Made by a program: the position numbers and the translations under genes. The notes under the pieces were generated by a model. The model was given only the letters and a program-made list of their open reading frames with translations, did not search any database and had not been told where the DNA came from. This document shows, piece after piece, positions 12,748 to 49,571 of a stretch of DNA of 60,995 nucleotides. Origin of the DNA: an uncultured bacterium (GTDB lineage: Bacteria > Methylomirabilota > Methylomirabilia > Methylomirabilales > 2-02-FULL-66-22); assembly GCA_964576535.1 (NCBI GenBank), contig CAZNWB010000008.1, positions 1 through 60,995 on the forward strand, read 5' to 3'. How positions within the stretch are numbered: position 1 is the first letter of the stretch; each line of letters opens with the position of its first letter.

Positions 12748-14708
12748 GATCTCGGCATACTGCTGTCCTAGGCCCGCTGTCCTTGAGCCTCGCCCTCTGC
12801 GGGGTCCTCTTGGGGTGCGCGGCGCAGGTGTCGCTTGAGCGCGGCGAGGCATTGAGTGCCGCCGGACGGTGGGAGGAGGCGGCCCAGTTTTACCTCCAGG
12901 CGGCGTCCAAGGATCCCAAGAACATTGAGATTCGCCTGGCCCTGGCTCGGGCCATGCATGAGGCCTCGCAATCCGCCGTCACGCAGGGCAATGAGCTTCT
13001 GGCGGCCGGACGGACGGAAGAGGCAGCCGCAGCCTACCGTCGGGCCCTCAGGTACAACCCCGAGAACCGGGCGGCGCTGGAGGGCTTGGAACGGGTCGCG
13101 GTCCACCGCCAGGTCCAGGAACGGCTCGCCCGCGCCCGGGAGCGCATGGACAAGGCCGATTGGCGCGCTGCCCAGACCGAGGTGTTGGTGGCATTGCGTC
13201 TGGACCCGGAGAGCAGGCAGGCCAGGGAACTCCAGCAGCAGATCGCGGCGCAGCTCAGGGCGGAGGCCCCCCTGCCCAAGACCGACGGCGAGAAGGCCGC
13301 CGCCGAGCTGTTCTCCACCCAACCGGTGACCCTCCGGTTCCGCGACACCGATATCAAGGAGGTCTTCGAGGTCTTCTCGCGCACGGCCGGGGTTAACATC
13401 ATCACCGACGAGTCCCTGCCGGCGAAGCGCGTGACCACGTTCTTCAAGGATCTTCCCATGCGGGAGGCCTTCAACCTGATCCTGGTGTCCAATCGGCTCT
13501 TCGCCAAGCGCGTCGCCCCCAATACGGTGATCGCCATTCCCGACAACCCGGCCAAGCGCCAGCAGTATGACGAGCTGATGGTCCAGACATTCTACCTCAA
13601 CGACGCGGATGCCAAGGTGGCGGTGAACCTGCTGCGGACCATCCTCAACACCCGTCAGATCTTCGTGAACGAGAAGCTCAACGCCCTGGTCGTCCGGGAG
13701 ACGCCGGAGAAGATCGAACTGGCGCGAAAGCTCCTGGCCGCGAATGACCGGAGCGCCGCCGAGGTCGAGATCGAGTTGGAAGTGCTGGAGGTGGATTGGG
13801 ACCGCCTCGAGAACTTGGGGATCGACATCCAGCCCCGCACCCTGGCGGTGACGCTGAACTTCCCCACCGGCATCCCCGTCAACGATTTCTGGAACACCAT
13901 CAAGACTGGCAGCACCGTGAACATCACCAACCCGTCCCTGATCCTGCACCTGGCCAAGAACGACGGAAGCACCAAGATCCTGGCCAACCCCACCGTCCGC
14001 ATCCTGGACCGGCAGAAGGCCCGCCTCCTCATCGGCCAGCGGTACCCGTTCCAGATCTCCTCCACCGCCAGCGTGCCCAGCGTGTCCGGGACCACGCCGG
14101 GCACGACGCCGACAGGCGCCATCACCACCACTGAGACCCGGGTGGAGTACCGGGACACGGGTCTCAAGCTCACGCTGACCCCTACCATTCACCTGAATGG
14201 CGAGGTCACAGTGGAGCTGAACTTCGAGATCAGCGCCATCGGCGCCCCCATCCCCGGGTTGGGGCTAAATGCGGCAGCTACCCCGCCGGTGAACACCCGG
14301 AATCTGGATACCTTCATCAAGGTGAAGAACGGGGAAACCCGATTGCTGGGCGGCCTCTTCCAGACCATCGACTCGTCGGCCAACAGCCGGATCCCGTTCT
14401 TGAGCGATATCCCCATCCTGGGTCGCCTCTTCGTCAGCGGGGACCAGCAGCGGACTCGGACCGATGTCCTGATCTCGCTCACGCCCCGTCTCGTGAAGAT
14501 CCTGGATCGCCCGGAGGCCGATGTGGAGCTCTTCCCCTCCGGCACGGCCGACAGCTTCGGCGTTCCGGTGCCCGGTATTCCGGCCATCAGCCCGCCCACG
14601 CCGGCGCCGGCCCCGCGCCCGACGACTCCGCCTTCCGCCGCTCCGCCCGGTGGGCCGCCGGTCATCACGCCGCCCGGTGGGCCGCCCCCCGGCATCCCGA
14701 GACCATGA
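12744..14708 (+). CDS. gspD: Lipoprotein secretin with N-terminal TPRs (GspD/PulQ-like)
   Basis: LLGC lipobox, TPR helices, KILANP, ETRLLGGL, IPFLSDIPILGRLF. Confidence 0.92.
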   Translation: MRSRHTAVLGPLSLSLALCGVLLGCAAQVSLERGEALSAAGRWEEAAQFYLQAASKDPKNIEIRLALARAMHEASQSAVTQGNELLAAGRTEEAAAAYRRALRYNPENRAALEGLERVAVHRQVQERLARARERMDKADWRAAQTEVLVALRLDPESRQARELQQQIAAQLRAEAPLPKTDGEKAAAELFSTQPVTLRFRDTDIKEVFEVFSRTAGVNIITDESLPAKRVTTFFKDLPMREAFNLILVSNRLFAKRVAPNTVIAIPDNPAKRQQYDELMVQTFYLNDADAKVAVNLLRTILNTRQIFVNEKLNALVVRETPEKIELARKLLAANDRSAAEVEIELEVLEVDWDRLENLGIDIQPRTLAVTLNFPTGIPVNDFWNTIKTGSTVNITNPSLILHLAKNDGSTKILANPTVRILDRQKARLLIGQRYPFQISSTASVPSVSGTTPGTTPTGAITTTETRVEYRDTGLKLTLTPTIHLNGEVTVELNFEISAIGAPIPGLGLNAAATPPVNTRNLDTFIKVKNGETRLLGGLFQTIDSSANSRIPFLSDIPILGRLFVSGDQQRTRTDVLISLTPRLVKILDRPEADVELFPSGTADSFGVPVPGIPAISPPTPAPAPRPTTPPSAAPPGGPPVITPPGGPPPGIPRP

Positions 14709-42958: not shown

Positions 42959-43180
42959 GACCAGGGGTCGGCGCTCCGCCTGGCAAGCCTCTCGTCGCCC
43001 AGCGGGGGGTACCCAACCCACCCGGGGGGCACCCGGTTGGGTCCGGGACGGGCGGCGCCACGGCCTCGATCCGGTGACGAGTCCCGACGCCCTGTGATCC
43101 CGCCACGGCGGGATCCGGTTCGTCGGGATTTGTTTTGGCCATGGGGAGCGCGCATGGGCAGCTGTGGGGATGGCGATTCG

Positions 43181-44977
43181 ATGAGCAGCCCGTCGCCCGG
43201 CGCCTTTGGCCGGCACGGCGAACGCTGGGCCCCCCTGCTGCTGGTCGCCGGAACGGCGATTTTCTACCTCGCCCGCCTGGGACTGGCCGGCTTGTATGAT
43301 CCCAATGAGGGCATGTATGCCGAGATCCCGCGGGAGATGGTCCTCCTCGGGGACTGGCTGACCCCCCGCTTCAATTTCATCCGGTACTTCGAGAAGCCGC
43401 CCCTCCTCTATTGGCTCACCGCCCTCGCCTACCAGCTGTTCGGCATCACGGAGTTCTCGGCCAGGCTGGCGACCGCCCTGGCGGCCACGCTGGGCGTGGG
43501 CGTCGTGTACGGGATCGGCCGGGACCTCTGGGGAAGGCGGGCCGGCCTCGTGAGTGGGCTGATCCTGGCGACCAGTTTCGGCTACTTCATCTTCAGCCGG
43601 ATCATCCTCACCGATATGCTGTTCACCGCGTTGCTTGCCGCGACCTACTGGGGGGTCTTGCGCGGCCTTCTTGGCGAGACGCCCCGCCGGATCCCCATGC
43701 TGCTGGCTTACGCGGCCATGGGCCTGGCCATCCTGACCAAGGGGTTGATCGGGCTGGCCTTCCCCGTGCTTACCCTGGGAAGCTTCCTCCTCTTGACCCG
43801 CGAGTGGCGACTCGTGCGGCGCCTGGAACTCTTGCGCGGGGGCGCCGTGTTCCTGATCGTCACGGCCCCCTGGCACATCCTGGTCGGCCTGAAGAACCCC
43901 GGCTTCTTCTGGTTCTACTTCGTGAACGAGCACCTGCTGCGCTTCGTGGGACGACGGCACCTCCTGGATTACGCCCCCATGCCGCTCTACGCCTTCTTGA
44001 TCATGGTGCTGGTCTGGACCTTCCCGTGGAGCGTGTTCCTCCCGGTGGCGCTGCGGCGCTCCTGGCACCGGTTGCGAGGCACCCGCCCGGGGGAGCGGGG
44101 GCTCCTCTTCATCCTGCTGTGGGCCGCGTCGGTGATCGGCTTCTTCGCCCTGACGCCGTCACGCCTGGAATACTACTCCCTGCCGGCATTCCCGGCCCTG
44201 GCGCTCGTGGTAGGGCACCTGTGGGAGACCGAGATGGCCTGGCGTCGCGGCCGGATCCTCGCCAGCGGCCTCTCGTACAGCTGCTTCGGCCTCCTGACCA
44301 TCGCCGTCGGGCTGCTCCCGACACCCTGGCTCTTCCCGCGCCTGGAGAACGTCTCCCTGTACAACATGTTCACCGCCATGGATGCCTACTCCCGGGACAT
44401 CCAGTACGGAATCCTGTCCAACGCCGAAGTCTACACCGTGCCGTCCTACGAGGAGCTGGTCCCCCTCCTCCGCTGGGCCACGCTGATCCTCCTCCTGGGG
44501 GCGGCCGCGGCCACCCTGTTCTGGCTTCGCCGGAGGCCTGGCTGGACGCTCGCGTGCCTCGTGGCCAGCATGGTCCCCACCCTGACCTTCGTCCAGACCG
44601 GGATCAAGACCTTCGAACCCCACCGCTCCATCATCCGGCTGACCGATGTGATCTCCCACGAATCCCGGCCGGGAGATGAGATCATCATCGAGGGGCCGTA
44701 CGAGAACTTCGCCAGCGCGAACTTCTACACGGGGCGGCGGTCCCGGGTACTCCACGGCCTCTTTGGGGATCTGGAATTCGGATCGCGCTATCCCGAGGCG
44801 CAGGGGACCTTCCTGGAGGAGGAGGAGTTCGTGAGGCTCTGGCGGGGGGCGGGGCGGGTTTTCTTGCTGACCGACTCTCCCGCTCGGCTCAGGAAGCTCG
44901 AGGCCCTGGACCCGGAGCCTGCCGTGCTGGGCCGGAGCGGCAAGAACTGGCTGTTTTCCAACCGCGCGGGCTCATGA
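43181..44977 (+). CDS. arnT: ArnT-like glycosyltransferase family 39 (start uncertain)
   Basis: D.NEG.YAEI.REM, YFEKPPL.YW, LTKGLIG, multi-TM. Confidence 0.85.
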   Translation: MSSPSPGAFGRHGERWAPLLLVAGTAIFYLARLGLAGLYDPNEGMYAEIPREMVLLGDWLTPRFNFIRYFEKPPLLYWLTALAYQLFGITEFSARLATALAATLGVGVVYGIGRDLWGRRAGLVSGLILATSFGYFIFSRIILTDMLFTALLAATYWGVLRGLLGETPRRIPMLLAYAAMGLAILTKGLIGLAFPVLTLGSFLLLTREWRLVRRLELLRGGAVFLIVTAPWHILVGLKNPGFFWFYFVNEHLLRFVGRRHLLDYAPMPLYAFLIMVLVWTFPWSVFLPVALRRSWHRLRGTRPGERGLLFILLWAASVIGFFALTPSRLEYYSLPAFPALALVVGHLWETEMAWRRGRILASGLSYSCFGLLTIAVGLLPTPWLFPRLENVSLYNMFTAMDAYSRDIQYGILSNAEVYTVPSYEELVPLLRWATLILLLGAAAATLFWLRRRPGWTLACLVASMVPTLTFVQTGIKTFEPHRSIIRLTDVISHESRPGDEIIIEGPYENFASANFYTGRRSRVLHGLFGDLEFGSRYPEAQGTFLEEEEFVRLWRGAGRVFLLTDSPARLRKLEALDPEPAVLGRSGKNWLFSNRAGS

Positions 44978-44984
44978 AGAAAAG

Positions 44985-45090
44985 CGTACAATCGTACGAG
45001 AGTACGACTGTACGGGAGGATCGCGAGAGGCGAACCAATGCCGCGGGCCATCCGAACCCGTACATTCGTACCTTCGTACTCTCGTACGCC
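44985..45090. repeat. Inverted period-8 repeat (GTACGAGA / TCGTACCT)
   Basis: gcgtacaatcgtacgagagtacgactgtacggg ... cccgtacattcgtaccttcgtactctcgtacgc. Confidence 0.8.
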
Positions 45091-45128: not shown

Positions 45129-46046
45129 TTAGTCGACTTCGAAGCCGGCGGGCATGGCGACCGTCCCGGCACGGCCGCGGACGGGCCGGCGGACAACCTC
45201 GACGACCGGGACGCGCTCCTCCCCCTCGGCACGGACGTGCTCGGCCAGAACCTCCAACGGAAGGCACCGCGCCCCCTCCGCCCGGAGCGCCGTGAGCAAC
45301 CGGTCCGTCACCGCCTGAAACCCTCCGCCTTCCATCTCGGCGTGCAGGGTGAGGACACCCCGGGCTTTCCCCCGAAGTTCCCGGCGCACCAGGGCGATGT
45401 ACCCGTCGCCGTCCAGGCCATCCATCCCCAGGGCCTCATCCAGCGTGGGACACGTCGTCGGGAGCTGCAGCGTTCGGAGGGCGCGCCCGGCCACCCGCGG
45501 AAAGAACGGCTGCGTGCCCCGGGTGTCGCTGGCGTAGGTGAAGCCCGTCTCGTCGAGGGCCCGCAGGCTGGCCACGCTCACCTGCCAGCCCGGCGCTCCG
45601 AAGCCGCGGGGGGGACGGCCCGCCACCTCCTGATAGACCGACACGGCCTGCCCGATCTCTTCCCGGACCGCCCCCTCGTCCATCCGGTGCACGCAATCCT
45701 GCCACCGCCGGTGATCGTAGCCATGCACGGCCAGTTCGTGTCCCGCCACAACCACCTGTCGCAGGAGCGGGGCCAGGCGGCGGCCCGCATGACGCGACGG
45801 CAAAAGCGTCCCGGAGAGAATCGTTCGGAGGCCGTAGGTGCGAACCGCCCGTGTCCTCCGCATCTTGGCCAGGAACCCCGGCCGAAGGAGCCGCAGGACG
45901 GCACGACCGGTTGTATCCGGCCCGAGGGCCACGAAGAAGGTGCCCCGGACCCCATGCCGATCCAGAAGGCCCAGGAGGGCTGGGACCCCGACCCGGAGGC
46001 CGTCGAAGGTGCAGACGTCAATCTTCAGGCCGACCGCGATACTCAT
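45129..46046 (-). CDS. arnD: ArnD-like deformylase (polysaccharide deacetylase family)
   Basis: LKIDV.T..G...GVP, GPDTTGRA, HGYDH..WQ, PTT.PTLDE, TLHAEMEG. Confidence 0.88.
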   Translation of the reverse strand: MSIAVGLKIDVCTFDGLRVGVPALLGLLDRHGVRGTFFVALGPDTTGRAVLRLLRPGFLAKMRRTRAVRTYGLRTILSGTLLPSRHAGRRLAPLLRQVVVAGHELAVHGYDHRRWQDCVHRMDEGAVREEIGQAVSVYQEVAGRPPRGFGAPGWQVSVASLRALDETGFTYASDTRGTQPFFPRVAGRALRTLQLPTTCPTLDEALGMDGLDGDGYIALVRRELRGKARGVLTLHAEMEGGGFQAVTDRLLTALRAEGARCLPLEVLAEHVRAEGEERVPVVEVVRRPVRGRAGTVAMPAGFEVD

Positions 46047-46109
46047 CGGACAAACGGACGGTCCTGATGGAAGAAGAGCGTACGAACGTACGAATGTACG
46101 CCTTTTGCT

Positions 46110-47072
46110 TTATCGTCCATTCCCCGCCTTGAACCAATCGATCGTCTGGCGGAGTCCCTTCTCCAGCGGCGTCTCGGCCTCGACGCCGAAGATCTCCTGC
46201 ATGCGTTTGACGCAGGGGACCCGGCGGGGCACGTCCTCGTAGCTCTCCCCGTACACCGCCACCTGGGGCACGAAGACGATCTTGGACGGGGACCCGGCGA
46301 TCCGAATCATGGTCTCTGCCAGTTCCAGGATGCTGGTCTCGACGTCACTGCCCACGTTGAAGATCTCGCCCACCGCGCGGTCGTTCGTCCCCGCCTCGAT
46401 CGTGGCGCGGATGGCGTCGTCGATGTAGGTGAAACAGCGGGTCTGGGATCCGTCCCCGATCACCGTCACTGGATCACCCCGCAGCACCTGGCCCATGAAG
46501 ATGGTAATGACCCGGCCCACGTCGATCTTGTCCAGGCGGGGACCGTACACGTTAAAATAGCGCAGGACGACCACGGGGAGCCCCAGGCGGTGGTAGGCGA
46601 AGCAGAAGTGCTCCGCCGCCGCCTTGGAGGTGGAATAGCACCACCGGTCAATCCGCGTGGACCCCAACACCCGGTCGTCGTCCTCGTGGAAGGGAACCCT
46701 GGGGTTCCGCCCGTACACCTCCGAGGTGGAGCTGAAGACAACCTTGCGATTGTGCTTGTAGGCCAGCTTCAGCACTGCCTGGGTGCCGTTGATGTTTACG
46801 TTCAACACCTCGTAGGGATCGGCCACGTAGTGCTCGACCCCCACCACGGCCGCCAGGTGGTAGACCAGATCGGACTTCAGGATCAGGCTCTCCAGGATCT
46901 CGGTGTTCAGCACCGTATCCCGGATGTAATGGAAGCGGGGGTTCCCGAGGTGGTGGCGAACCTTGAGGTCACCACCGATATCCAGGATGCTGACGTCATC
47001 CCCGCGCGCAAGCAACGCATCAGACAGGTGCGATCCCAGGAAACCTGCCCCGCCCGTGATCAGGATTTTCAA
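46110..47072 (-). CDS. NAD-dependent nucleotide-sugar epimerase/decarboxylase (ArnA C-terminal-like)
   Basis: ITGGAGFLGSH, STSEVYG, RWCYSTSK, TRCFTYIDD. Confidence 0.88.
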   Translation of the reverse strand: MKILITGGAGFLGSHLSDALLARGDDVSILDIGGDLKVRHHLGNPRFHYIRDTVLNTEILESLILKSDLVYHLAAVVGVEHYVADPYEVLNVNINGTQAVLKLAYKHNRKVVFSSTSEVYGRNPRVPFHEDDDRVLGSTRIDRWCYSTSKAAAEHFCFAYHRLGLPVVVLRYFNVYGPRLDKIDVGRVITIFMGQVLRGDPVTVIGDGSQTRCFTYIDDAIRATIEAGTNDRAVGEIFNVGSDVETSILELAETMIRIAGSPSKIVFVPQVAVYGESYEDVPRRVPCVKRMQEIFGVEAETPLEKGLRQTIDWFKAGNGR

Positions 47073-48049
47073 GTGCCTCTCCTTCTCTCTCCGAGGACTT
47101 CCGGCGTCGATGATTCGAAGTGCATCACACGCCCTTTCGGCAATGCGGCGAAAAAGGCGGCTCCATCGGTCTCCGGTCCACCGTCCGCCTGCAGCCGGAG
47201 CACCTCCAGGATTCCCTGCCCCGTCGCCACGTCGAGCGCCCCATCCTCTCCAACTCCCAGGATGGTTCCGGGGGGCGTCTCACACGCCTGCGCGCCAGGC
47301 GGGAGGGCGGACCACAGAAATACCCACCGGCCATCTTGGAACGTGAATGCCCCCGGGAACGGATGGGTGACCGCGCGGATCAGGTTGTATATCTGCCAAG
47401 CCGAATGCGACCAGTCAATGAGCCCGTCCCCTGGGGTCCTGCGTCTGAACTTGGTCGCCGCGCCGTGGTCCTGGGGCGTCCGCGGCGCCCGACCCTCCGC
47501 GATCAGAGGGTACATCTCCCTCAGGAGGGTCTGGGCGGCCGCCGTGAGCTTCCGCGAGAGCGTCAGGGCCGTGTCCTCGATAGCGATGGGCACGGTCCGC
47601 TGGGCGATGATGTCGCCATGGTCTGCCCGGGCATCCATGTGATGCAGGGTGACGCCGGTTGTCGTCTCGCCTTGCACCAGCACCCAGTTTATGGGGGCCC
47701 GGCCCCGGTACTTCGGCAGCAGCGACCCGTGCAGGTTGATAGCACCCAGGCGGGGGATCGCCAGGAGGGCCGGGGAAAGCAGGTGTCGGTAGTAGAAGGA
47801 AAAGATCAGGTCAGGCCGGATGCCGCGAACCTCTTCCACGAACGCCGGCACGTTCGGATCGTCGGGGGTATGGACGGGGATGTCCCTGGAGGCCGCCAGC
47901 GCCGCCACCGACCCGAACCAGATCGTCTCTCCTGGATCATTGCGATGGGTTACCACGGCCACCACGTTCGCCCCCCGGTCCAGGAGCTCTTGGAGGCACG
48001 CGACACCCAGGTCGCTGTAACCGAAGACAACGATCCGAATGGCGTCCAA
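47069..48049 (-). CDS. arnA: Stand-alone UDP-L-Ara4N formyltransferase (ArnA N-terminal domain)
   Basis: VVFGY..LG, W F.SV, FSFYYR, NLHGSLLPKYRGRAPINW, RAVTHPFPGAF. Confidence 0.85.
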   Translation of the reverse strand: MDAIRIVVFGYSDLGVACLQELLDRGANVVAVVTHRNDPGETIWFGSVAALAASRDIPVHTPDDPNVPAFVEEVRGIRPDLIFSFYYRHLLSPALLAIPRLGAINLHGSLLPKYRGRAPINWVLVQGETTTGVTLHHMDARADHGDIIAQRTVPIAIEDTALTLSRKLTAAAQTLLREMYPLIAEGRAPRTPQDHGAATKFRRRTPGDGLIDWSHSAWQIYNLIRAVTHPFPGAFTFQDGRWVFLWSALPPGAQACETPPGTILGVGEDGALDVATGQGILEVLRLQADGGPETDGAAFFAALPKGRVMHFESSTPEVLGERRRGT

Positions 48050-48064
48050 TCTCTCAGCAAACGG

Positions 48065-48123
48065 CGTACGAGAGTACGAAAGTACCTATACAATGCGGAA
48101 TGCGGAATGGGGAATTCGGAATT
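48065..48123. repeat. Period-8 GTACGAGA tract plus period-7 AATGCGG arm
   Basis: gcgtacgagagtacgaaagtacc; aatgcggaatgcggaatggggaattcggaatt. Confidence 0.8.
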
Positions 48124-48136
48124 GGGAGGGAGGGAT

Positions 48137-48499
48137 TCACGAGCGACCCCGAGCAGTTCGAATGGAAGAGACCGCAATCGCTAGAAGCTCGTTACCCTCG
48201 TTCACCAAGCCGTCCACCTCTATCGGCAAGAAGAAGCCTGCTCCAAGGGAAACCTCAAGCCAGTAGAGCGTCTCGTCCAGCTCCTCTTCCACGATTCCCA
48301 TTTTCGAGACAAAGTCTGCCCTTGATCGCGCTCGGCAGGCAGCTCGGTAATTCGCCCCGGCAGAGGTCCCTGACTTGACCATCTGAGTCCCAATAACCCC
48401 CGCCGTCCTTCCCGGGGGAAGTTTTTCCGCCAATCGGATAATCGCCAGCCCAAACTGCTTCATTCGCTCCTTCAAACCCTCCACATCGCGATCCCGCAT
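48137..48499 (-). CDS. Four-helix-bundle protein (23S rRNA intervening-sequence protein/Avd-like family)
   Basis: Q..KSGTSAGANYRAACRARSRADFVSKMGIVEEELDETLYWLE; start MRDRD. Confidence 0.92.
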   Translation of the reverse strand: MRDRDVEGLKERMKQFGLAIIRLAEKLPPGRTAGVIGTQMVKSGTSAGANYRAACRARSRADFVSKMGIVEEELDETLYWLEVSLGAGFFLPIEVDGLVNEGNELLAIAVSSIRTARGRS

Positions 48500-48522
48500 C
48501 GGCCGTTTAGTCCCCTTTATCA

Positions 48523-48605
48523 CTCCGCATTCCGCAATTGAGTACCCTCTGAGTGCCCCCCATTTGCAGTCATTCCGCATTCCGCATTCCGCATTCCGCA
48601 TTCGA
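48523..48605. repeat. Period-7 CATTCCG arm, inverse of 48092-48123
   Basis: Four perfect CATTCCG units at 48571-48598 plus ctccgcattccgcaatt. Confidence 0.85.
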
Positions 48606-49571
48606 TTCGTAAACCCTCTGGACAACGTACCTCGGCCTCTTCCGGACCTCCATATAGATCCGACCGATATACTCGCCGATGAGCCCCAGAGCCAGCACCT
48701 GGATCCCGACAAAAAAGAAGAGCACGGCAAAGAGCGTGAAGACCCCTTCCAACTCGGGACCCACCAGCAGGCGGCGGAGCAACAGGAATCCTCCAAACCC
48801 CAGGCCCAAGAGGGCGATGCCCATGCCCGCCAGGCTGACGATCTGAATGGGAAGCAGCGAGAACCCGGTCATGAGGTCGAAGTTCAGCCGGATCAGCCGG
48901 AACAAATTGTACTTGGACCGCCCGTTGGTCCGCCGGTCGTGAGCCACGGGGATCTCTGCTGGAGTCGCGGCGAAGGTGTTGGCAAGCGCCGGGATGAAGC
49001 CGGAGACCTCGCTGCAGGTCCGCAGGACGTCCACCACCTCCCGCCGGTAGGCGCGCAGCATGCAGCCGTAGTCCCGCATTTCCACCCCGACGACCTTGGA
49101 GGTGAGCTTGTTCACCACCCAGGAGAGCAGCCGGCGAAACGCGTGGTCCTGGCGATTCTGGCGCCACCCACCCACGACATCGTGGCCCTCACTGATCTTG
49201 TCCAGCAGCCGAGGGATCTCCTCGGGCGGGTTCTGGAGATCCGCATCCAGGGTCACGATGACGTCGCCCCGGGCATGGTCCATTCCGGCGAACACGGCCG
49301 CATGCTGGCCATAGTTCCGGTTAAGCTGGATCACCCGGACCACGTCGTGTTTCTCCTGCAGGCGGCGCAGCAGCTCCAGGGAGCGGTCGCGGCTGCCGTC
49401 ATCCACGAAGATCACCTCGTATGGATGGCCGAGGTCCGCCAGCACCGGCTCCAACCGCTCGTACAGCGGTTCCAGATTCGGCTCCTCGTTGAAAACGGGA
49501 ATGACGACAGAGACGGCGGGGGCGGGAGGTTTCGCCCTCTCCTGGCTTGGTGAAGGGGTATCTGAGGTCAT
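48570..49571 (-). CDS. arnC: Undecaprenyl-phosphate L-Ara4FN transferase ArnC-like (GT2)
   Basis: SVVIPVFNEE, VDDGSRD, RNYGQH.A, TLDADLQNPPEEIP, DYGCMLRAYRR, GEYIGRIY. Confidence 0.9.
   Translation of the reverse strand: MTSDTPSPSQERAKPPAPAVSVVIPVFNEEPNLEPLYERLEPVLADLGHPYEVIFVDDGSRDRSLELLRRLQEKHDVVRVIQLNRNYGQHAAVFAGMDHARGDVIVTLDADLQNPPEEIPRLLDKISEGHDVVGGWRQNRQDHAFRRLLSWVVNKLTSKVVGVEMRDYGCMLRAYRREVVDVLRTCSEVSGFIPALANTFAATPAEIPVAHDRRTNGRSKYNLFRLIRLNFDLMTGFSLLPIQIVSLAGMGIALLGLGFGGFLLLRRLLVGPELEGVFTLFAVLFFFVGIQVLALGLIGEYIGRIYMEVRKRPRYVVQRVYESNAECGMRNAE

Follow-up and report, generated by a model that had tools for sequence, protein, structure and literature searches.

A four-helix-bundle gene and its inverted heptamer arrays form a discrete cassette in the arn operon of an uncultured Methylomirabilota bacterium

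The arn operon for lipid A modification on contig CAZNWB010000008.1 of an uncultured Methylomirabilota bacterium (GenBank assembly GCA_964576535.1) carries, between its arnC homologue and its formyltransferase gene, a small gene for a four-helix-bundle protein (P0001, 120 amino acids plus stop; 48137..48499, minus strand; PF05635/TIGR02436) that is enclosed by inverted tandem arrays of a single 7-nucleotide (nt) word. Comparison with related genomes establishes that gene and arrays are a real unit, specifically a discrete cassette that has been both gained and lost, that occurs at different loci and that encodes a protein under selection. The cassette is promoterless and probably of the type known as intervening sequences (IVSs) of 23S rRNA, here located outside rRNA. 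No published description of an IVS-type cassette in operon spacers was found, and a full-text literature search returned no account of a four-helix-bundle gene within inverted tandem arrays other than in rRNA. The window, that is, the whole analysed stretch of 60,995 nt, is one entire contig (C8) of a 3.72-Mb, 204-contig assembly (G000) with 65% G+C and 96.5% completeness.

The word reads GGAATGC in the sense of the mRNA. The upstream arm, at the mRNA 5' side of the gene, is (CATTCCG)4.7 on the plus strand and CGGAATG in mRNA sense (48571..48603, minus strand; 100% matches in Tandem Repeats Finder), and it follows the word without deviation. The downstream or mRNA 3' arm, found with the same program, is (AATGCGG)4.4 (48092..48122, reaching 48127 when taken as a 14-mer; minus strand) and runs AATGCGG AATGCGG AATGGGG AATTCGG AATTGGG on the plus strand, with a constant GGAAT core and two variable spacer bases. 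A repeat search aligns the inverted arms over 40 nt at 85% complementarity, a value that rises to 96% over a 24-nt core and to 100% over an 18-nt core. In the predicted fold of the minus-strand RNA the paired arms close off the whole open reading frame (ORF), in the centroid structure as well as in that of minimum energy (-209 kcal/mol, z = -2.35, 1 of 100 shuffles equally stable). An earlier note on this DNA, made from the letters alone, had proposed just such a pair of inverted arms around the gene, and both the copy numbers and the fold bear this out. It had missed that the arnC frame continues into the upstream arm, whose array encodes the C-terminal 10 residues of arnC (NAECGMRNAE); the arnC stop codon (48570-48572) lies at the arm's downstream edge. 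Inside the arms, a partial array (48521..48541, minus strand; repeat search) directly repeats the upstream arm with 86% and 76% identity and provides an alternative partner for the downstream arm (16 nt, 94% complementary); a non-repeat centre, read by eye, separates the two upstream arrays (48542..48570, minus strand). A scan for promoters and terminators gave no promoter-like site and no minus-strand terminator-like site in the cassette, and an AGGGG at 48512..48516 (minus strand), 12 nt upstream of the ATG, is a possible ribosome-binding site, as judged from its letters and position.

The same layout recurs throughout the family. G000 holds six TIGR02436 genes. Inverted tandem arrays enclose five of them, and no two of the five use the same word (AATGCGG, GGGTCGAA-type, GTGTAAC, GGCAAT-type and GATTTGG-type); the remaining gene, on C22, lacks arms and has no reverse transcriptase neighbour among the 10 ORFs scanned. 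A family search of 61 related genomes gave matches in 46. The loci analysed come from 140 of the 150 matches listed, beyond which there are 38 further matches; left out of the 150 were six from the unpublished genome G055, three from G000 and one at a contig end. All six G000 copies were added separately, which gave 138 loci with at least 300 nt on both sides. G055 enters only the arnC, homologue, array-count and family-search tallies and one of the 29 displayed loci (L040), and the cassette statistics (arm test, word sharing, dN/dS, neighbours, mismatches, polarity and arm similarity) are free of it. In the arm test, which takes the best inverted local alignment between the 300-nt flanks and sets its threshold of 11.5 at the 95th percentile of a mismatched-locus null, 121 of the 138 family loci pass (88%), and 36 of 138 do so in direct orientation. 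Control ORFs of 90-180 amino acids with a strong coding signal in G000 pass in 12 of 195 cases (6%), which excludes chance as the origin of the arms. Arm periods are 7 in 87 cassettes, 8 in 24, 6 in seven, 9 in two and 5 in one. The scoring of paralogs for flanking inverted 7-mers that the earlier note had called for thus came out in favour of its proposal.

Outside the phylum, the arm test is passed by five of six sampled plasmid-borne homologues from three other phyla (four cyanobacteria, Gemmatirosa and Azospirillum). In the Pseudanabaena homologue the arrays closest to the gene are in direct orientation, and in the Nostoc homologue an ISL3 transposase adjoins the gene. On a Pseudanabaena galeata plasmid (L208; NZ_CP112875.1 46268-46627), cas6 and cas4 flank a four-helix-bundle gene with long AAAAGCT/AAAAGCC arrays, a layout that may account for the presence of the family in catalogues of cas-neighbouring genes. 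Within G000, the C32 paralog (13486-13701) is short, covering 72 of 109 profile positions, and its right arm abuts the gene; its orthologues in G012 and G016 are cassettes of full length. The C32 copy may therefore be decaying in place, a snapshot on the way to a gene-less hairpin.

Gene and arms are inherited and relocated together, and each protein subfamily has its own arm word. The closest homologue of P0001, in G020, is 82% identical in amino acids; its locus is unrelated, and its arms are again made of AATGCGG. Only in the coding region and the arrays are the G000 and G020 cassettes similar in nucleotide sequence (75%). Across 115 intact cassettes, with same-locus pairs flagged by flank similarity and set aside, the arm word is common to 34 of 48 different-locus pairs with at least 65% protein identity, to 21 of 62 pairs at 55-65%, to 11 of 223 at 45-55% and to about 0.3% of 6151 pairs below 45%. 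Synonymous sites are mostly saturated in these different-locus pairs. Specifically, the G000 and G020 genes differ with a nonsynonymous divergence (dN) of 0.09 and a synonymous divergence (dS) of 2.68, and the protein is therefore under strong purifying selection. Arm similarity, in turn, exceeds the 95th percentile of unrelated pairs in 96% of 47 different-locus pairs with 65-95% protein identity, compared with 40% (left) and 11% (right) for the inner non-coding spacers of the same pairs. This far better conservation of the arms indicates that the word is constrained or homogenised and not merely young.

These results make it very improbable that gene and arms are associated only passively, with tandem-word hairpins filling spacers independently and a small horizontally acquired gene landing in or between them. 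Raw material for such encounters is plentiful in G000, which holds 758 arrays of period 7 and 680 of period 8 (periods 6 and 10 account for 240 and 175), as well as about 132-136 short-loop hairpins, with 136 inverted same-word pairs that have gaps below 80 nt, and tRNA-like stretches (identified by eye) and ordinary genes also occur between same-word arrays. The gap between family genes and control ORFs in the arm test, the retention of the subfamily word across loci and genomes, and an arm polarity that is fixed relative to the gene all argue against this alternative. A seeming counterexample, the gene rpmJ enclosed by inverted AATGCGG arrays, was rejected, since at this locus (L202; G000 C17:13179-13460) one complete AATGCGG hairpin lies in the infA-rpmJ spacer and another in the rpmJ-rpsM spacer; the first word there overlaps with the TGA that ends infA, and the second hairpin is followed by a small palindrome of GGGGACCCCTTGGGTG type. 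Other long-gap inverted pairs were likewise set aside as ordinary genes or tRNA-like stretches, the latter again read by eye, between the arrays of neighbouring spacers.

At the junction of arnC and the formyltransferase gene, the cassette is limited to the lineage of the window. Orthologues of arnC, 67-85% identical, are present in 14 same-genus genomes; the formyltransferase gene follows directly in 11 of them and another gene in three, and none of the 14 has a TIGR02436 match near arnC. The spacers in those 11 genomes measure 58-270 nt and are too short to hold the four-helix-bundle gene. One of the three closest relatives, G018, has no repeats at the junction. In G008, AATGCGG-type arrays stand in direct orientation around a CACCCAATGGGTACCC centre and enclose no gene, and the arnC frame, followed by eye, crosses the arrays and ends in an ATGA that it shares with the start of the formyltransferase gene. 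In G016, the junction is a 270-nt nest in which an empty heptamer hairpin (CGAATTCGGAATGCGGAATGA, loop CACTC, TCATTTCGAATTTCGGATTGCGG) is itself enclosed by outer octamer arrays of GTACGAAG and CGTACNTT type; apart from G016 and G008, the relatives in which arnC adjoins the formyltransferase gene have no arrays. The window retains one matching octamer array beside the formyltransferase start, (GTACGAAA)2.5 at 48066..48085 (unstranded; repeat search and comparison with G016), which corresponds to the formyltransferase-side arm of the outer octamer hairpin of G016 and whose arnC-side partner is missing in the window.

The filled form is no assembly artefact, because an independent 2205-nt contig from a different study spans formyltransferase, cassette gene and arnC (47000-49051) with five letters differing. 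A DNA run (X11) has no cover across the cassette, to which no weight is given. G000 has no clear orthologues of the DNA on either side of the G020 cassette, and a reciprocal empty site was therefore not identified. The earlier note had named this a filled site and had suggested looking for relatives with an empty repeat pair between the two genes, which is what G016 presents; it would have abandoned the idea had paralogs lacked inverted repeats and had the gene been stably syntenic in arn operons, and the genomes present the opposite on both counts. A centre of CACCCAAnGGGTACCC type stands between two arrays at the same junction position in G008 and G016, as read by eye. Small elements of this type also lie beside or between AATGCGG arrays at unrelated loci in several genomes (L002 in G016, L004 in G008, L032 in G020 and C17 of G000) and look like a second, nested repeat family.

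Profile searches place P0001 in the family with 44.6 bits for PF05635 (cut-off 33.8) and 69.8 bits for TIGR02436 (cut-off 24), and phmmer matches it to the solved protein 2RLD with E = 4.1e-16. An AlphaFold2 model predicts four helices with a predicted local distance difference test (pLDDT) score of 97, and Foldseek returns as its best structural matches 2RLD (BT_0352; TM-score 0.82-0.91), 2GSC (Xcc0516; 0.80-0.85), the accessory variability determinant Avd (4DWL) and the ribonucleoprotein of a diversity-generating retroelement (DGR; 8UB7). The model thereby assigns P0001 the four-helix-bundle fold of BT_0352 and Xcc0516. Because the 2RLD entry contains five chains of one sequence, P0001 may by analogy assemble into a homopentameric ring. 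With Avd (4DWL and the 8UB7 series, the latter with reverse transcriptase and RNA), P0001 shares the four-helix bundle at a TM-score of 0.76-0.84 and a sequence identity of about 20%, and the titles of the structure entries, which make Avd part of a ribonucleoprotein with reverse transcriptase, indicate a fold able to work on nucleic acid. A reading of P0001 as the Avd of a DGR was rejected because the whole 96.5%-complete assembly has no match to the reverse transcriptase profile PF00078; template and variable repeats were not seen in it either. The kinship to 23S IVS proteins and to Avd that the earlier note named is thus confirmed by profile scores, the 2RLD match, the structural search and the available text of PMC4990558.

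The closest known counterparts of the cassette are the ORF-bearing IVSs of 23S rRNA, such as that in helix 45 of Coxiella burnetii, which encodes S23p, and those of Leptospira, Brucella and Xanthomonas. They encode the same protein family and have the same build, with an ORF of about 120 amino acids in the loop of a stem of about 28-35 bp formed by terminal inverted repeats, in a whole unit of about 430-530 nt. The Coxiella IVS also carries tandem heptamers (GACAGAT, two to three copies) in the 5' part of its stem, at the RNase III site, and RNase III cuts it in vitro at the first of them; the available text of this paper mentions direct heptamers in the IVS and draws no generalisation from them (PMC4990558). 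The cassette differs in lying between two protein genes of an operon and not in an rRNA helix, a location by which a reading as an rRNA intervening sequence was rejected. Furthermore, its arms consist entirely of arrays of one word, its word also forms dozens of gene-less hairpins elsewhere in the genome, and its ORF is under purifying selection, whereas that of Coxiella, as far as described, is decaying. RNase III excision has been demonstrated for the rRNA elements and would be a prediction for the cassette.

This kinship raises the question whether the cassette is strictly an intervening sequence of mRNA, with arms that form an RNA stem, RNase III excising the ORF RNA, and this processing as its main biology. 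Such an account is unlikely. It would fit the arm-closed folds, the presence of an RNase III homologue in the genome (143 bits in a profile search, below the 166-bit cut-off), the homologous ORFs in 23S IVSs that RNase III excises and whose stems contain heptamers (PMC4990558, in the text available), the absence of a promoter-like site from the scan and the orientation of neighbouring genes. Specifically, upstream neighbours are co-oriented with the gene in 76 cases and opposed in 10, with 34 not callable, and downstream neighbours are co-oriented in 81 and opposed in 15, with 23 not callable, by a call that relies on G+C at third codon positions and is error-prone (C29 was miscalled). At the 76 loci with a same-strand coding upstream flank, the distance from the upstream stop codon to the arm has a median of 3 nt (5th-95th percentile, -13 to +15). 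Against this account stands, first, that such co-orientation is little above the bacterial background, itself a general figure and not one computed from these genomes. Second, the arm pairs of 118 cassettes comprise 3014 Watson-Crick pairs, 102 G·U, 123 A·C and 266 others; since sense-strand G·U pairs are no more frequent than A·C pairs, selection does not seem to maintain the arms as a stem in the sense RNA, which suggests that something other than RNA pairing keeps them alike. Third, gene-less hairpins between co-oriented genes in G000 (60 in number) are found in both orientations relative to transcription, 31 versus 29, and thus have no polarity, whereas the upstream arm of cassettes is purine-rich on the gene's strand in 92 and not in 23. 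Finally, cutting would separate arnC from the rest of the operon. The earlier description of an mRNA-IVS-like mobile cassette therefore survives as far as gene and arms form one unit at different loci, and the pairing statistics tell against its RNA side.

Of five RNA runs (X16-X20), available as contigs, X16 and X20 were compared with the window: contigs of X16 cover arnC and the formyltransferase gene of an approximately 92% identical relative, those of X20 cover 214 nt of the formyltransferase gene, and neither set covers the four-helix-bundle gene. Some RNA contigs join 48113-48119 to 48568-48572. A reading of these joints as excision of the cassette was rejected, since their sides are shorter than 30 nt and two carry 18-34 inserted letters; they are read as other same-word hairpins of the metagenome.

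The available data are compatible with a model in which the arms are cis sites that let the cassette enter or replace gene-less hairpins of the same word, either by same-word recombination or gene conversion or at an extruded loop. This step may well apply, though it is held short of a firm preference; recombination or gene conversion would be the simplest route, needing no dedicated enzyme, and the nested hairpin of G016 fits an entry via same-word arrays or hairpin loops. Somewhat more tentatively, the protein, which its homologues suggest to be a ring of five four-helix bundles, could read the array of its own word with one conserved core per subunit, which would explain both the 7-8-nt pitch and the rarity of arrays with more than five copies. 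What points to such a ring reader is the pitch itself, the conserved core, the few arrays above about five copies and the homopentameric homologues, among which the Xanthomonas protein is described as a homopentameric toroid (PMC4990558). Within arrays of GGAATGC, positions 2, 3 and 5 are conserved at 95-98% and position 4 at 73%, and GTTCG octamers have a core at 96-100% and three loose positions, figures that are partly circular because the arrays were chosen on their consensus unit. Arrays are typically 3.6 copies long (median; 95th percentile, 5.4 copies), and those longer than 5.5 copies number 59 of 1395. A further step, which is doubtful, would be that in a transcript reading through from arnC the two arms form a stem of about 35 bp that RNase III could cut as in the 23S IVS. 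The stem is a plausible substrate in view of the RNase III homologue and the cleavage of the Coxiella IVS (PMC4990558); a cut would uncouple arnC from the downstream arn genes and is probably not what the arms are selected for.

Comparable paired arrays have been seen before without such a gene. In Geobacter metallireducens, arrays of four to five tandem 7-8-nt words lie on opposite strands at variable distance and mostly between genes, as do the word pairs here, and were read as sites of unidentified global regulators (PMC2700814); the two arms of the cassette have this layout of opposed arrays. Other dispersed heptamer arrays are those of TAACTGA in Beggiatoaceae and cyanobacteria (PMC4679880). 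Term searches for the four-helix-bundle gene found no mention of it in the main texts of both papers and in 12 of the 19 supplementary files of PMC2700814. The cassette departs from the Geobacter arrays, as far as these are described, in that a gene lies inside the array pair and the word tracks the protein subfamily.

The Geobacter interpretation suggests an alternative in which P0001 is a host regulator that binds the roughly 70-85 AATGCGG arrays of the genome in trans and tunes their operons, with its own arms being autoregulatory and the cassette not selfish. The periodic conserved core of the words, the small number of arrays above five copies, the pentameric homologues reported in part of the literature, the strong purifying selection on the protein and the Geobacter precedent (PMC2700814) would all suit it. 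It is nonetheless decidedly improbable, given that array-rich genomes such as G018 and G002 lack the gene, that the largest word families of G000 have no cognate gene in it, that the gene is non-syntenic and moves between loci, and that the C32 copy decays in place.

AATGCGG is the second commonest word in G000 (68 arrays). Counted as arrays of three copies with at most one mismatch, it forms 44 arrays in G000, 40 in G020, 85 in G022, 36 in G018, 36 in G002, 20 in G008, 20 in G016, 16 in G001 and at most four in each of the other 53 genomes. P0001-type genes flanked by AATGCGG-like arms occur in G000 and G020; the copy in G001 is truncated, and G022 has a split copy with the word ATTGCGG. The homologues of G008 and G016 are more distant (38% and 54% amino acid identity), and their arms (L050 in G008; L036 and L058 in G016) have other words.

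Several observations weigh against the proposed cassette model. G018, G002, G008 and G016 yielded no P0001-type gene with arms of this kind, although G018 (93% complete) has the purest arrays (17 of 36 exact) and G002 is 94% complete. The commonest words of G000 (AACCGAC, AACCACCG and AGAGCCG) have no cassette in the G000 assembly; AACCGAC, AGAGCCG and GTTCGG-type words do have cassettes in other genomes of the genus. Same-word hairpins without a cognate gene imply that hairpins outlive the resident protein or spread without it. In the protein itself, the helix-2 motif Q...S...N..E retains Q39, S46 and N50, and its E column, nearly invariant in the family, is Ala, as it is in the relative L140. 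The net charge of P0001, counted from its sequence, is near zero, whereas Avd is basic. Moreover, the correlation of word and protein could reflect shared descent together with homogenisation against the genome-wide pool of the same word, with no binding involved; binding, cleavage and movement are each inferred; and the counts overstate significance because related cassettes are non-independent data points. For the suggestion of the earlier note that the protein acts on the heptamer elements, the match of word to subfamily, the periodic core and the scarcity of long arrays are circumstantial evidence only, and the array-rich, gene-less G018 and G002 weaken it.

The cassette also resembles repetitive extragenic palindromic (REP) sequences and REPINs with their REP-associated tyrosine transposases (RAYTs), in which a single-copy gene is flanked by an inverted short repeat that is also dispersed as gene-less hairpins, and in which each gene subfamily likewise has its own repeat. 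The cassette differs in encoding a protein without a known catalytic fold and in having a tandem word array in place of a single palindrome. That the hairpins are themselves moved by Y1 tyrosine transposases, with the four-helix-bundle gene as cargo, is barely credible. The genome does contain 13 Y1_Tnp (PF01797) matches, mostly ORFs of 323-338 amino acids that begin MPRxARLDAPG and form a multi-copy family (contigs C1, C20, C22, C33, C40, C51, C53, C79, C110, C122, C128 and C199 of G000). However, a 7/8-mer array lies within 400 nt of only four of the 13, and none of the 13 is bracketed by an inverted same-word pair.

On the minus strand of the window the order is arnC, the 120-codon ORF, formyltransferase, decarboxylase and arnD. 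The upstream gene (48570..49571, minus strand) is an arnC homologue of the undecaprenyl-phosphate 4-deoxy-4-formamido-L-arabinose transferase type, at 375 bits below the 529-bit equivalog cut-off, and the downstream gene (47069..48049, minus strand) encodes the formyltransferase, the N-terminal half of arnA as a separate gene, with 349 bits for NF005414, above cut-off; these profile matches confirm the position that the earlier note gave to the cassette gene. A decarboxylase of the arnA C-terminal type (46110..47072, minus strand), an arnD homologue (45129..46046, minus strand) and an arnT homologue (43037..44977, plus strand) follow. The two arnA halves are separate genes (46110-48049) whose coding regions overlap by 4 nt (47069-47072), a split that is common to the relatives. 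Octamer arrays of GTACG type (CGTACATT, CGTACGAA and GTACGAAA) occupy three successive arn spacers, namely arnT/arnD (45059-45087), arnD/decarboxylase (46079-46100) and formyltransferase/cassette (48066-48085), and recur further along the contig at 52815-52844 and 56164-59842. The window holds many further 7/8-mer families, among them AACCGAC, GTGGTCA and TCCCAGCN, and at 59682-59844 a 71-nt unit made of an octamer array and a heptamer array is repeated in tandem 2.3 times with 90% identity.

The new comparisons also raise a broader and speculative possibility, which is on present evidence rather doubtful: that proteins of this family assemble into rings that recognise tandem word arrays by their sequence, with a 5-nt core per subunit, and constitute together with the inverted arrays an enzyme-less selfish element. 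The abundant 7/8-mer hairpins of many phyla might then be gene-less derivatives of such elements, and the 23S IVSs copies that landed in rRNA. For annotation, the cassettes carry a direct warning, as they interrupt operons and alter the 3' ends of the genes beside them, as in the tail of arnC. The family itself, listed as S23p or 'four helix bundle protein', is very large and of unknown function, and it is found in rRNA IVSs, in CRISPR-cas loci and on plasmids. Taken together, if gene and arms are one element, these findings would join the S23p-type family to the excess of 7-8-nt arrays and hairpins between bacterial genes, and would provide a concrete and testable pairing of protein and word, here P0001 and GGAATGC.

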